A stretch of DNA of 64,000 nt from a phage. Every line of letters starts with the position of its first letter. The stretch's first letter is position 1. This document shows positions 31,606-35,136 of the stretch, in pieces. The notes under the pieces are model-generated. The model worked only from the letters and a program-made list of their open reading frames with translations. It did no database searches and was not told where the DNA came from. The stretch lies in the sequence record PZ386977.1; one strand, written 5' to 3'. Both the position numbers and the translations under genes were made by a program.

Positions 31606-32238
31606 TCACAGTACGTTAGTTACAAGTGTAATGATTTCTTTGGACACATTAGGGAAGTCAATATAAGTATATTTACCACCGATCTTAATCTTAACATCAT
31701 TTTCAAGAGAAGTAAACAGCTTTGATTCAGTTTCTGACATGTTGTATGCAAAGATTCTAAGAGCGCCATCTCGTCGAATTTCAATTTGGCGAATGCCTAG
31801 AACTCGTTTAGCGAATCGAACTTCTAAGTTACTACGGTTTTCACCAATTTCTTTAACTTCAACTTTATCTTTAATATTTTCAAAAACAAAGTTTGCTAAT
31901 TCATGCATTTCAGGAGTAACTCCACGTGCTTTTCTGGTGTTACGTTTCTGAAGAAGTTCTGGAGCATTTTCTTGGGCAAAGAGGTCTGCAGCTTTTTGGA
32001 TAATATCCATTGCTTCGCCTGTTGCTACAAGTCCATCACCTGATTTTTCGACTAAACCTTTCTTAATCAATACACCAATGTTAGAGTTAACAACTGATGC
32101 ATTGTATTCTGCTTCCAGAGCTTCACGGACATTGGCAGCAGTGGTGAAGTTGTTCTTAATGATATAAACCATTATTGCAGCAGTTTTTTCATTCAGAGCG
32201 TTTTCAGAAGCTTTGATGATGTAAGTAACTTTAGACAT
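31606..32238 (-). CDS. motA: MotA middle-transcription activator
   Basis: 210 aa; MSKVTYIIKAS...NIGVLIKKGLVEKSGDGL matches T4 MotA. Confidence 0.9.
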   Translation of the reverse strand: MSKVTYIIKASENALNEKTAAIMVYIIKNNFTTAANVREALEAEYNASVVNSNIGVLIKKGLVEKSGDGLVATGEAMDIIQKAADLFAQENAPELLQKRNTRKARGVTPEMHELANFVFENIKDKVEVKEIGENRSNLEVRFAKRVLGIRQIEIRRDGALRIFAYNMSETESKLFTSLENDVKIKIGGKYTYIDFPNVSKEIITLVTNVL

Positions 32239-32304
32239 TTTATTTCTCCAAATTAGTATTTGTTTTGATAGGTCTATAATATCATGTTTGAAGCAAAAGT
32301 AAAC
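32231..32304 (-). repeat. direct repeat copy A (promoter + leader + first codons of motA)
   Basis: ttagacattttatttctccaa ... gttttgataggtctataatatcatgtttgaagca shared with 32550-32625. Confidence 0.8.
32276..32304 (-). promoter_or_regulatory. early promoter for motA (GTTTAC -35, TATTAT -10)
   Basis: gtaaac 32299-32304, ataata 32276-32281. Confidence 0.6.
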
Positions 32305-32341
32305 TTTATTTTGGGCTCTTTTTAAAAAGCCCTGGTAAAAT

Positions 32342-32557
32342 TTACAAACTCATTTCTTTAATAAGGCCAATAAGTTTTGCCTTTTTAGAACGAAGCTTTT
32401 CTAAATGACGTCCATTTGAACCGCGAACCACTAAAGAATTGATTTCAACTTCTAAGAAATTTAATTCTTTAACAAGTGCTTTACGAGGAGCATTCATACC
32501 AGGTTTAACTTTACCGAAACGAGTAGTTGTGTTTTGGGTTAATTTCATTTTAGACAT
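32342..32557 (-). CDS. hypothetical basic protein (71 aa)
   Basis: ORF track; begins MSKMKL, inside duplicated promoter cassette. Confidence 0.55.
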   Translation of the reverse strand: MSKMKLTQNTTTRFGKVKPGMNAPRKALVKELNFLEVEINSLVVRGSNGRHLEKLRSKKAKLIGLIKEMSL

Positions 32558-32625
32558 TTTATTTCTCCAATTTGGTTGTTTTGTTTTGATAGGTCTATAA
32601 TATCATGTTTGAAGCACATGTAAAC
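32550..32625 (-). repeat. direct repeat copy B
   Basis: Same 21-nt and 34-nt blocks as 32231-32304. Confidence 0.8.
32597..32625 (-). promoter_or_regulatory. early promoter (GTTTAC -35, TATTAT -10)
   Basis: gtaaac 32620-32625, ataata 32597-32602. Confidence 0.6.
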
Positions 32626-32651
32626 TGTTTTGTGAGAAAAAATGCACAAAA

Positions 32652-32667
32652 GGGAGCCGAAGCTCCC
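32652..32667 (-). terminator. intrinsic terminator GGGAGC-UUCG-GCUCCC + UUUUGUG downstream of gene 52
   Basis: Perfect 6-bp stem, tetraloop, T-run on minus strand. Confidence 0.7.
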
Positions 32668-32743
32668 TAATCGTGATTGTCCAACCAATACAGCCAAATC
32701 ACTAGTGCAGCTATTGCACCGATAAATCCTAAGGCTAGGGCAC

Positions 32744-34069
32744 TCAAAGTGCCTCCAAGTCTTTAGTGTACTCTGTCACAACATCAGTAGACTTCCAATA
32801 CTCATTTTCTTCTTTCTTAGCTTTAGCTTCTTCTGCTAGTTTACGTGCTTCATCGGAAGTGATATGGAAGATGTTAAGACCTACTAGTTTATCGACGTGT
32901 TCTTTGTACATTTCGATTTGTGCTAGCTCTTCAGTCAAAGCTTTACGGGTCTTGCCTTGAATCACAATTTCGCCGGCAATAACTTTTTTGATGAAGTGTG
33001 CCTTAGCAAAAGCCAGTTTAAATGCTTTTTCAGATTCAAGAATTTTGTTGTCGATACGTTTCTGAACGTAAGTCTTACGGACTTCAACAAAATCTTTGAT
33101 TAAGTCTACTACATTATCGTAGACAGCTAATTTACCCTTTTCATTAATCACTGTAATGTTTTGTGAACGACGTTCGATGAGACTAAAATCTTTCATGATT
33201 TTTTCATGACGTAGCTCTTCGTCATCTGGAAGCGAGTACTCTTTACGGAACTTCACCTTAAACCCAAAGCCGTGTTCACCACAATCATCTTCCCATGAGA
33301 TTAGACCTTTATCTTCTAATGGGTCAAGAACCTTACTCACATACGTTTCACGGTCGAATTTATATGGTATTTCAGTTATCTGCATTTGAGTGCGAGATGT
33401 GAACTTATATGTTCCGTGAATCTCGTACCGTCCATCAACTTCATGTACTTCACCACTGAATTCCGGGAATTCAACTTTTGGCTTAGTGACATTTTTACCT
33501 TGAAGAGCTTGTAATACAGCCTTTTTTACCGATTTAAAACTATGAGGCAGAATATTTGTTGCGTAACCGGTTGCAATACCAGATACACCATTCAAAAGAA
33601 CTGTCGGAACAATAGGAAGATAGAATTTTGGTGGAACGTGTTCTTTATCTTCATGAGCTGGAGCATATTCAGTATCTTTATAGACATTATAGAAATTTTT
33701 ACTTACACGAGCAAAAATATAACGAGATGCTGCAGCTTTTTGGACTGTTCGAGAACCAAAGTTGCCTTGACCATCTAATAGTGGATAGTTGTTGTTCCAT
33801 GTGTTAGCCATTAATGCACCTGCATCTTGTGCAGAAGATTCACCATGGTGATAACCTAAATCTGCAACACCGCCTGCAATTGACGCAAGTTTATGAAATT
33901 TTTCTTTATTACCACGAGCCAAATCTAACGCACGATGAACCACAAAACGTTGAACCGGCTTAAATCCATCAATCATGTTTGGGATTGCACGGTTTTCAAC
34001 GGTGTACATCGCATATGCTAAGGCTTCGTTATCAATAATACTTTTTAGATTACGAGAATTCAATTGCAT
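32744..34069 (-). CDS. 52: gp52 DNA topoisomerase II medium subunit (GyrA-like)
   Basis: 441 aa; MQLNSRNLKSIIDNEALAYAMYTVENRAIPNMIDGFKPVQRF...; active-site tyrosine context. Confidence 0.95.
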   Translation of the reverse strand: MQLNSRNLKSIIDNEALAYAMYTVENRAIPNMIDGFKPVQRFVVHRALDLARGNKEKFHKLASIAGGVADLGYHHGESSAQDAGALMANTWNNNYPLLDGQGNFGSRTVQKAAASRYIFARVSKNFYNVYKDTEYAPAHEDKEHVPPKFYLPIVPTVLLNGVSGIATGYATNILPHSFKSVKKAVLQALQGKNVTKPKVEFPEFSGEVHEVDGRYEIHGTYKFTSRTQMQITEIPYKFDRETYVSKVLDPLEDKGLISWEDDCGEHGFGFKVKFRKEYSLPDDEELRHEKIMKDFSLIERRSQNITVINEKGKLAVYDNVVDLIKDFVEVRKTYVQKRIDNKILESEKAFKLAFAKAHFIKKVIAGEIVIQGKTRKALTEELAQIEMYKEHVDKLVGLNIFHITSDEARKLAEEAKAKKEENEYWKSTDVVTEYTKDLEAL

Positions 34070-34859: not shown

Positions 34860-34935
34860 GCTAATTTCCTCAATTGATTAATGTTTTTGTAATCCATGAG
34901 AGCATTATACTCTGCTCTCAAGAGTTTGTACAATT

Positions 34936-35136
34936 TTATTCGGTTATATCAGAACGTTCAAAAAGCTCTTCAACAGTTAAACATTCGGTGTCATCCTCAA
35001 TAAAGAATCGGGTCCAACACGTTGGGGCAATGCAGTTATGAGTTTGTCCGGCGATAGAAGCTACACGAATAAGCTGCTGTCCATTATTCAGGACGAATTT
35101 TTCACCAATTTCAACATCTTTAAAAAGCTTAGCCAT
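34936..35136 (-). CDS. hypothetical protein (66 aa)
   Basis: ORF track; promoter upstream. Confidence 0.5.
   Translation of the reverse strand: MAKLFKDVEIGEKFVLNNGQQLIRVASIAGQTHNCIAPTCWTRFFIEDDTECLTVEELFERSDITE

Follow-up and report, generated by a model that had tools for sequence, protein, structure and literature searches.

T4-type phages shuffle small genetic modules between short elements known as PeSLs (Arbiol 2010, Comeau 2014). In the T-even phages, such an element is composed of a stem-loop just 5' of the promoter, an AT-rich region, the -35 and -10 boxes of a TTTACW..TAYWAT promoter and, at its 3' end, a Shine-Dalgarno (SD) sequence together with the start codon (PMC4122927). Circles formed between flanking PeSLs have been found in RB49 and phi1 by inverse polymerase chain reaction (PCR), one circle species being present at about 1 per 1e5 virions (PMC2839356). 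Here, we describe two near-identical early-promoter cassettes arranged as a direct repeat upstream of motA in 64,000 nucleotides (nt) of phage DNA (sequence record PZ386977.1; the whole stretch is referred to as the window), which megablast assigns to Mosigvirus, the RB69 group of the T-even phages. The cassettes enclose a gene for a basic protein of 71 amino acids (aa) and very probably constitute the recombination substrate by which this module is lost or swapped, with motA keeping its own start. Judged from sequence comparison, the locus matches the PeSL-type modular shuffling already described.

The arrangement resembles that of ORFan192 of RB49/phi1, a small gene of unknown function that also lies between two stem-loop/AT-rich/promoter/SD/start elements, with a close relative carrying a single chimeric element, crossovers located between the -10, the SD and the ATG, and every module bringing its own promoter and hairpin (Arbiol 2010, PMC2839356). 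The two cases differ in several respects. The RB49 elements contain near-perfect sigma-70 promoters (TTGACA/TATAAT), and polyG/polyC stems often reside inside the promoter, whereas the cassettes upstream of motA are of the GTTTAC/TG/TAnnAT type and have their hairpin upstream. The downstream gene is a key regulator, motA, rather than another gene of unknown function, and the two copies (88% identical) are far more alike than the genome-wide family (~59%). In addition, circles were detected in RB49/phi1 (PMC2839356), while the motA locus is described here from sequence comparison.

With the PeSLs of T4 and PST (Comeau, Arbiol, Krisch 2014, PMC4122927), the locus shares the promoter type (TTTACW...TAYWAT), the stem-loop just upstream, the SD and start at the 3' end, and the occurrence of indels or replacements between close T-even relatives, such as ndd.4/.5 versus ORF268/269. 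All sequence-level features of a PeSL are present, namely a sigma-70-type early promoter with its boxes at the proper spacing, an AT-rich stretch, a stem-loop, and an SD and start at the 3' end. Likewise, the cassettes flank a variable gene, and the endpoints of indels and replacements between close relatives lie inside the elements. Neither of the two PeSL publications (PMC2839356, PMC4122927) mentions motA, RB69 or JS98, so that the locus and the genera represent a new instance, and not a new kind. The locus goes slightly beyond the published cases in the concerted evolution of paired copies, in a single slot that occurs in four states across three genera, and in the use of the motA start as a recombination site. 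As far as they are summarised from Repoila et al. 1994 in these two publications, the hyperplastic internal-protein loci of T-even phages are similar in that early, non-essential small genes are shuffled between early-promoter elements with AT-rich hairpins, but they occupy another locus and encode injected internal proteins. A more distant parallel is provided by integron cassettes, which are also single-gene modules swapped at a fixed slot and for which a circular intermediate is proposed. Integron cassettes lack promoters, bear attC sites and depend on an integrase. At the motA locus, by contrast, each module has its own promoter, no recombinase is encoded nearby, and the junctions are spread over the repeat.

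Extent and anatomy of the repeated cassettes

The repeat comprises positions 32230-32313 (cassette A, proximal to motA) and 32549-32634 (cassette B, distal) of the minus strand. A repeat search returned two segments, 32259-32313/32580-32634 (55 nt, 91%, spacing 321) and 32230-32266/32549-32585 (37 nt, 84%, spacing 319), which the alignment shows to be a single repeat split by a 2-nt indel. Compared from 10 nt 5' of the -35 box through ATG+6, the cassettes measure 86 and 88 nt and are identical at 77 of 88 positions (88%). The longest exact block covers 37 nt from the promoter core into the leader, and a further block consists of the 22 nt TTGGAGAAATAAAATGTCTAAA. The initial annotation had reported a two-copy direct repeat at this place, with an early promoter, an SD and the first codons in each copy. 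This description holds, both open reading frames (ORFs) beginning with MSK, and the repeat extends ~10 nt further upstream than noted there.

Within the 64 kb, there are exactly two occurrences each of the 33-mer promoter core and of the 22-mer TTGGAGAAATAAAATGTCTAAA, also with up to three mismatches, at expected counts of 0.00 and 0.01, respectively. Among the 11 early-promoter-like sites of the window, the A/B pair is the most alike (83% over 92 nt), lying 5 standard deviations (sd) above all other pairs (mean 59%, sd 4.5, maximum 72%), and the two cassettes have in common the spacer and leader, which vary among the other promoters. The similarity thus exceeds a shared promoter consensus, and both the rarity of the two words and the identity of the pair led us to reject chance or consensus alone as its source. 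An assembly artefact was rejected as well, since 77 independent records of Mosigvirus type show this arrangement. At ndd, a third copy of the SD-start block was sought and not found. Ndd (34859-34413, minus strand; upstream region 34860-34990) also starts with MSK, using the codons ATG TCC AAA, but its SD and promoter are unrelated to the cassettes of motA and the 71-aa gene; the repeat can therefore not be recognised by an MSK start alone.

The locus is composed of the following features, given from motA to gene 52:

31606-32238, minus strand: motA, activator of middle transcription, 210 aa (ORF); served by the proximal cassette A
32230-32313, minus strand: cassette A (motA-proximal), with -35 (G)TTTACT at 32303-32298, TG-extended -10 TATTAT at 32281-32276, SD GGAG at 32249-32246 and ATG TCT AAA at 32238-32230
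32313-32332, minus strand: stem-loop GGGCUUUU-UAAA-AAGAGCCC between the stop of the 71-aa gene and cassette A (predicted fold, -14 kcal/mol, z -3.9)
32342-32557, minus strand: basic 71-aa gene, optional cargo (ORF, PHROG match to phrog_6200)
32549-32634, minus strand: cassette B (distal), with -35 (G)TTTACA at 32624-32619, -10 TATTAT at 32602-32597, SD GGAG at 32568-32565 and ATG TCT AAA at 32557-32549
32637-32667, minus strand: predicted intrinsic terminator GGGAGC-UUCG-GCUCCC followed by the U-tract UUUUGUGCAUUUUUU (fold, -17.6 kcal/mol, z -5.6)
32667-32747, minus strand: putative coding TTG-start ORF of 27 codons (26 aa and stop), translated as the hydrophobic peptide LSALALGFIGAIAALVIWLYWLDNHD
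32744-34069, minus strand: gene 52, topoisomerase II medium subunit, 441 aa (ORF and annotation of relatives); upstream edge of the variable slot

The minus strand holds every gene between 30.5 and 34.9 kb of the window. This region is 97-98% identical to that of many Escherichia and Shigella phages annotated with gene 52 and motA, and MotA is annotated in >30 near-identical Mosigvirus records.

Both cassettes carry the extended consensus of T4-type early promoters, with AT tract, GTTTAC, TGn, TAnnAT and a conserved start region. The AT-rich tract directly precedes GTTTAC (CCCAAAATAAAG in A, CATTTTTTCTCACAAAACAG in B), and is followed by a 16-nt spacer, the TG-extended TATTAT, the conserved start region TATAGACCTATCAA, a leader of 17 or 19 nt, GGAG, 8 A-rich nt and ATG TCT AAA. 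Cassette A, with its AT-rich stretch at the 5' side, contains TTTGCTTCA in the spacer and has the leader CAAAACAAATACTAATT; in cassette B, the spacer contains TGTGCTTCA, the leader reads CAAAACAAAACAACCAAA, and ATG TCT AAA is the start of the 71-aa gene. The conserved TATAGACCTATCAA, GTTTAC and the TG-extended TAnnAT are shared with nine other sites in the window, and 10 of the 11 early-promoter-like sites have GTTTAC, N17, TAnnAT-AGAC and ATC in common. Early promoters of T4 are conserved well past the -35 and -10 boxes, and 'uber' promoters with UP/-35/TGn/-10 have been described (PMC2988021).

The predicted terminator closes the gene 52 transcription unit and supplies the stem-loop part of cassette B; the records of SA79RD, PhAPEC2 and WFK annotate it as such. 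The stem-loop before cassette A is more likely an attenuator or an RNA-end hairpin than a canonical terminator because a U-tract is missing from its sense strand; the annotation of SA79RD calls its counterpart a terminator. This stem-loop accompanies cassette A whatever the upstream gene, and is also located 3' of a 75-aa gene in JS10, IME281 and JK08. Its structure is kept across genera (GGGCTTTT-NAAA-AAGAGCCC in Mosigvirus, GAGCTCTT-GAAA-AAGAGCTC in Dhakavirus), with a compensatory change from G-C to A-T at pair 2 between Mosigvirus and Dhakavirus, and a change from C-G to U-G at another pair. Dhakavirus and most of the Mosigvirus strains examined have the GNRA tetraloop GAAA, the window has UAAA, and PhAPEC2 and JS09 have GGAAA, a loop longer by one base.

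Allelic states of the slot and positions of the junctions

By tblastn, the 71-aa gene is found in 94 phage records, 77 at an identity of at least 80% (Mosigvirus type) and 17 at 60-80% (Dhakavirus). The flanks are matched at 95-99% by ~150 Mosigvirus records, whereas a query containing the gene is covered to 80% or more in only 90 records. With RB69 as query, 154 records were matched, and an even-step sample drawn from them yielded 17 loci with the gene, 10 empty loci and 1 other. RB69 is empty, with a distance of 185 bp between motA and gene 52. For 18 retrieved Mosigvirus loci, allele lengths were measured from a fixed anchor in gene 52 to another in motA: alleles with the gene span 569-575 bp and empty alleles 251-255 bp, which is a difference of one repeat period (320 bp), and each of the empty alleles has one cassette. 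The comparison with related genomes that the initial annotation had recommended is thus answered by RB69 and about half of the ~150 Mosigvirus records, which lack the gene, are 320 bp shorter and carry a single cassette. Diverged and non-repeated flanks, the arrangement it had named as contrary evidence, are absent in Mosigvirus; in Dhakavirus, the promoter core is still repeated (34-49 nt exact), but leader and start have diverged. Empty and filled Mosigvirus alleles are interspersed on unbootstrapped neighbor-joining trees of both flanks, a pattern that is supportive of, rather than decisive for, repeated exchange. The record of F2 (NC_054913) is classified as Tequatrovirus, yet the locus carries the Mosigvirus cassette and shares 95% identity with RB69, indicating either an odd classification or a mosaic genome.

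Four markers distinguish the two cassette types: the upstream context (terminator in B, hairpin in A), the first three bases of the spacer (ATG, ACG or ATA in B, TTT in A), the leader (AAAACAACCAAA in B, AAATACTAAT in A), and the codon following ATGTCTAAA. When 12 empty alleles were analyzed with these markers, ten proved to be B-type and to switch to motA only after ATGTCTAAA, two of them (mar005P1 and F2) for the leader marker; the others are phi25-307, O157 typing phage 6, S143_2, WFK, phiC120, AV116, G2469 and 348Ecol098PP. The exchange thus falls inside the 22-23-nt SD-start block. RB69 combines a B-type upstream part with an A-type leader, which places its exchange inside the 37-nt promoter core. 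In mar005P1 and F2, a B-type upstream part is followed by an A-type TTT spacer and a B-type leader. Sequence comparison therefore suggests at least two, and probably three, junction classes among the empty Mosigvirus alleles.

Mosaic patches also occur in alleles that retain the gene. SA79RD and UGJNEcP2 have an A-type spacer in cassette B, and UGJNEcP2 in addition has a B-type leader in cassette A. Both copies carry lineage-specific bases, with GCTTCAAAC...ATATTAT in Mosigvirus versus GCTTTAAAC...ATACTAT in Dhakavirus. The movement of diagnostic bases between the copies in different strains is indicative of gene conversion, or concerted evolution, and the mosaic patterns are such as unequal crossing-over together with patchy gene conversion between the copies would produce.

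The same slot is found with other cargo and in other genera. The 71-aa gene is present in the Dhakaviruses JS98 and dhabil, while JS10 and IME281 have an unrelated 75-aa gene (phrog_10955) between the same two cassettes. A third cargo, an unrelated 73-aa gene (phrog_13302), resides on IMG/VR contig L028 (1090-1329), where it is joined at TATAGACCTATCAAATAAATGG to a different proximal promoter. An empty Dhakavirus allele is found on IMG/VR contig L032 (about 525-640), with an A-B-A mosaic SD region (GGAGATACAAAATGTCTAAA). In T4, the slot is empty and the single cassette has an unrelated promoter spacer. The Shigella phage JK08 (Tequatrovirus) has a T4 backbone with the Dhakavirus 75-aa module and a Dhakavirus-type motA promoter; its left junction lies in CTATCAA right after the -10 and its right junction in AAAATGTCTAAA at the motA start, and its proximal cassette is a hybrid with B-like bases 5' of the -35. 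IMG/VR contigs L026 and L027, as well as several other records of similar length, appear to match this arrangement, and L029 is also among the Tequatroviruses with a T4-type backbone and the Dhakavirus 75-aa module. In the Mosigvirus 348Ecol098PP (about 735-950 of the retrieved locus), the 3' end of gene 52, a small membrane ORF and the terminator (GGAACCTTCGGGTTCC) are of Dhakavirus type and are joined at the terminator tail to a Mosigvirus B-type cassette; by this comparison, the phage is an inter-genus mosaic with its breakpoint in the stem-loop part of the cassette. Across Mosigvirus, Dhakavirus, Tequatrovirus and the IMG/VR contigs, the slot is either empty or holds the 71-aa, the 75-aa or the 73-aa gene, and it is always bounded by early-promoter cassettes. 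The identity between the A and B repeats is highest in Mosigvirus (84-90%), lower in Dhakavirus (67-76%) and lowest in JK08 (63%). When IMG/VR was scanned for the Mosigvirus core, exact matching gave no hit, and with a degenerate pattern all loci retrieved were of Dhakavirus or Tequatrovirus type.

Between the window and JS98, nonsynonymous (dN) and synonymous (dS) divergence amount to 0.235 and 1.16 for the 71-aa gene, and to 0.234 and 0.97 for the adjacent motA. Given that the gene has diverged like motA, and that the hairpin and cassette A are recognisably orthologous between Mosigvirus and Dhakavirus, the two-cassette state is probably older than the split of these genera. Since the divergence of the gene equals that of motA, the empty Mosigvirus alleles are more likely to have arisen by loss than to represent a state before insertion. 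The initial annotation had viewed the gene as inserted or duplicated by recombination between the cassettes. Of this proposal, gene flux via the cassettes is supported by the empty relatives and by the junctions within the repeat, whereas, within Mosigvirus, insertion gives way to loss as the likelier event. The 71-aa gene does not duplicate any other gene, and what it shares with motA is confined to the leader and the first three codons. An origin as a duplicate of motA was rejected, as its product has only MSK in common with the MotA protein. The Dhakavirus 71-aa gene starts with MNK behind a different leader, and the leader end and MSK of motA are found on this gene only in Mosigvirus; from this difference, we conclude that the 71-aa gene received a copy of the motA start, by which the repeat grew from ~40 to ~86 nt.

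Proposed recombination between cassettes and its alternatives

At this locus, we observe a repeat of defined anatomy, presence and absence of the gene with junctions at several positions of the repeat, mosaic patches, and heterologous cargo. We propose that the 71-aa gene is a self-contained, early-expressed module placed before motA, both promoters being presumably active, and that motA would retain a promoter and a translation start of its own in filled and empty alleles alike. We infer the homologous recombination system of the phage to be the agent: the direct repeats, 320 bp apart, could pair out of register on identities of 20-40 nt, and a crossover between the cassettes would delete the module, leave one chimeric cassette behind and release a circle of ~320 bp. 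Any similar cassette could serve as a site at which this putative intermediate re-integrates. A module would be inserted or replaced by the reverse of the deletion, or by a double exchange with a relative that co-infects the cell, loss being the presumed usual direction in Mosigvirus, and non-crossover events would copy patches from cassette to cassette and thereby keep the copies alike. For RB49/phi1, steps of this kind have been demonstrated by experiment (PMC2839356), and the process was later extended to T4/PST (PMC4122927). If the hairpin before cassette A indeed attenuates rather than terminates transcription, motA may receive read-through from cassette B in filled alleles.

It might be argued that the ancestor was empty and that the module entered once, together with a second promoter, in which case the repeats would be the scar of an ancient insertion and not an active substrate. 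T4 and RB69 indeed have one cassette, ten of the 12 empty alleles share one cassette type (when the ATG and ATA spacer variants are pooled), and integration of a circle by a single crossover would generate exactly such flanking repeats (PMC2839356). We nevertheless consider this scenario unlikely: the 71-aa gene and motA have diverged to the same degree, the hairpin and cassette A are orthologous in both genera, the chimeric cassettes of RB69 and of mar005P1/F2 differ from each other, empty and filled alleles are interspersed on the flank trees, and the empty Dhakavirus allele has a mosaic SD of its own. Very unlikely, in our view, is that selection for identical regulation (promoter strength, leader, RegB/S1 start region) accounts by itself for the similarity of the cassettes, without any role in rearrangement. 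The other early promoters of the window average 59% identity, their spacers and leaders being unrelated, the 71-aa gene functions in Dhakavirus with another leader and start (MNK), diagnostic blocks swap between the copies as linked patches in different strains, and deletion endpoints lie exactly within the repeat. What speaks for such selection is the conservation of T4 early promoters well beyond -35 and -10 (PMC2988021), the match of GGAGAAATAAA to 9 of 11 RegB/S1 positions (PMC3014915), the cleavability of T4 motA mRNA as a good RegB substrate (PMC1702504), and the conservation of MSK and ATGTCTAAA at motA in T4, Dhakavirus and Mosigvirus.

A site-specific cassette system, be it integron-like or based on a homing endonuclease, would require an enzyme that recognises a site in the cassette, and this we regard as extremely improbable. 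The choice between homologous and site-specific recombination was left open by Comeau 2014 (PMC4122927), and independent events in different genera do have their junctions at two recurring short motifs, CTATCAA just behind the -10 and AAAATGTCTAAA where motA begins. However, these motifs are no more than the longest conserved stretches that heterologous cassettes share, junctions occur at three or more positions of the repeat, and patchy conversion tracts are what homologous exchange typically leaves. Moreover, no gene for a recombinase or homing endonuclease is present within ~2 kb on either side, the neighbours being arn.1-4, motA, 52, 52.1, ac and ndd.

Several points also weigh against recurrent exchange between the cassettes. 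All junctions were deduced by comparing finished genomes, the three junction classes could partly reflect point mutations or conversions after one event, and the spacer triplet is itself polymorphic (ATG, ACG, ATA, TTT). As recombination is frequent among T-even genomes and the neighbor-joining trees were built without bootstrapping, exchange of the flanks could intersperse the alleles without repeated excision. Furthermore, the missing U-tract makes a terminator role of the hairpin before cassette A doubtful, and selection for a common regulatory sequence (the RegB/S1 site or the MotA-box-like word) could add to the similarity of the copies.

With four states across three genera and several junction types, the locus provides a compact and naturally replicated test bed for the gain, loss and swapping of an accessory gene without disturbance of an essential neighbour. 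The size difference of 320 bp can be scored by a single PCR, making the locus a convenient model for cassette-mediated gene flux, and the position of motA downstream has a bearing on how its expression is insulated from, or altered by, upstream insertions. For annotation, the cassettes account for RB69-group genomes that differ by one small gene at the slot. Caution is advised as well, as paired paralogous promoters can collapse in assemblies or in culture.

Regulatory sequences, cargo and neighbours

The RegB/S1 consensus GGAGRAYARAA (PMC3014915) is matched at 9 of 11 positions by GGAGAAATAAA of the cassettes, and at 10 of 11 by GGAGATTAGAA of T4 motA, whose RNA is a good RegB substrate (PMC1702504). 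Both cassette messages may thus be RegB-limited. The early-promoter spacers also contain, on the minus strand, a MotA-box-like word, TTTGCTTCA at 32289-32297 in cassette A and TGTGCTTCA at 32610-32618 in cassette B. Both Dhakavirus copies have TCTGCTTTA at this word (TGCTTTA, versus TGCTTCA in the cassettes of the window). T4's own motA promoter is without it, and the 9-mer WWTGCTTYA occurs 21 times in the window versus 9 expected. Middle promoters were defined here by a MotA box, (a/t)(a/t)TGCTT(t/c)a, near -30 and ~12-15 nt 5' of a TAnnnT -10 box. A MotA-dependent middle promoter was rejected on spacing, as GCTT lies just 9 nt 5' of TATTAT and no other TAnnnT is located at the right distance. 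The word in the spacer may be a site of MotA autoregulation or a coincidence. It is conceivable, albeit improbable, that MotA shuts off its own promoter by binding to the cassette spacer, which would turn the slot into a 'plug-in' site for very early, self-limiting accessory genes. Whichever gene cassette exchange brings into the slot would then be expressed in a MotA-autoregulated and RegB-limited pulse.

As proposed in the initial annotation, the product of the 71-aa gene is basic (isoelectric point 10.9) and the gene immediately downstream is motA. Comparison with the Dhakavirus orthologues gives dN/dS ratios of 0.20-0.23, which indicates purifying selection. The protein belongs to PHROG 6200, a family without assigned function, and a Pfam search returned no family and only one match below threshold. 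Its homologues form 8 clusters among 5.8 billion proteins, all of Mosigvirus or Dhakavirus types. An AlphaFold2 model (pLDDT 76) consists of a disordered basic tail (residues 1-22) and a generic helical hairpin; a PDB search with this model gave no match at E<=0.001. In the Escherichia phage ECCR664, an A-run has lost one base (TCTAAAAGGCAAAAC versus TCTAAAAAGGCAAAAC), so that the frame is shifted in the last third of the gene, reflecting either a sequencing error or a decaying copy.

At the opposite edge of the slot, the 27-codon ORF overlaps the stop of gene 52 (TTGA), and its own stop overlaps the terminator stem. This ORF is without annotation in most Mosigvirus records and occupies the position of MotA.1 (49 aa) in T4, where Dhakavirus and 348Ecol098PP have an ORF of 34 aa.

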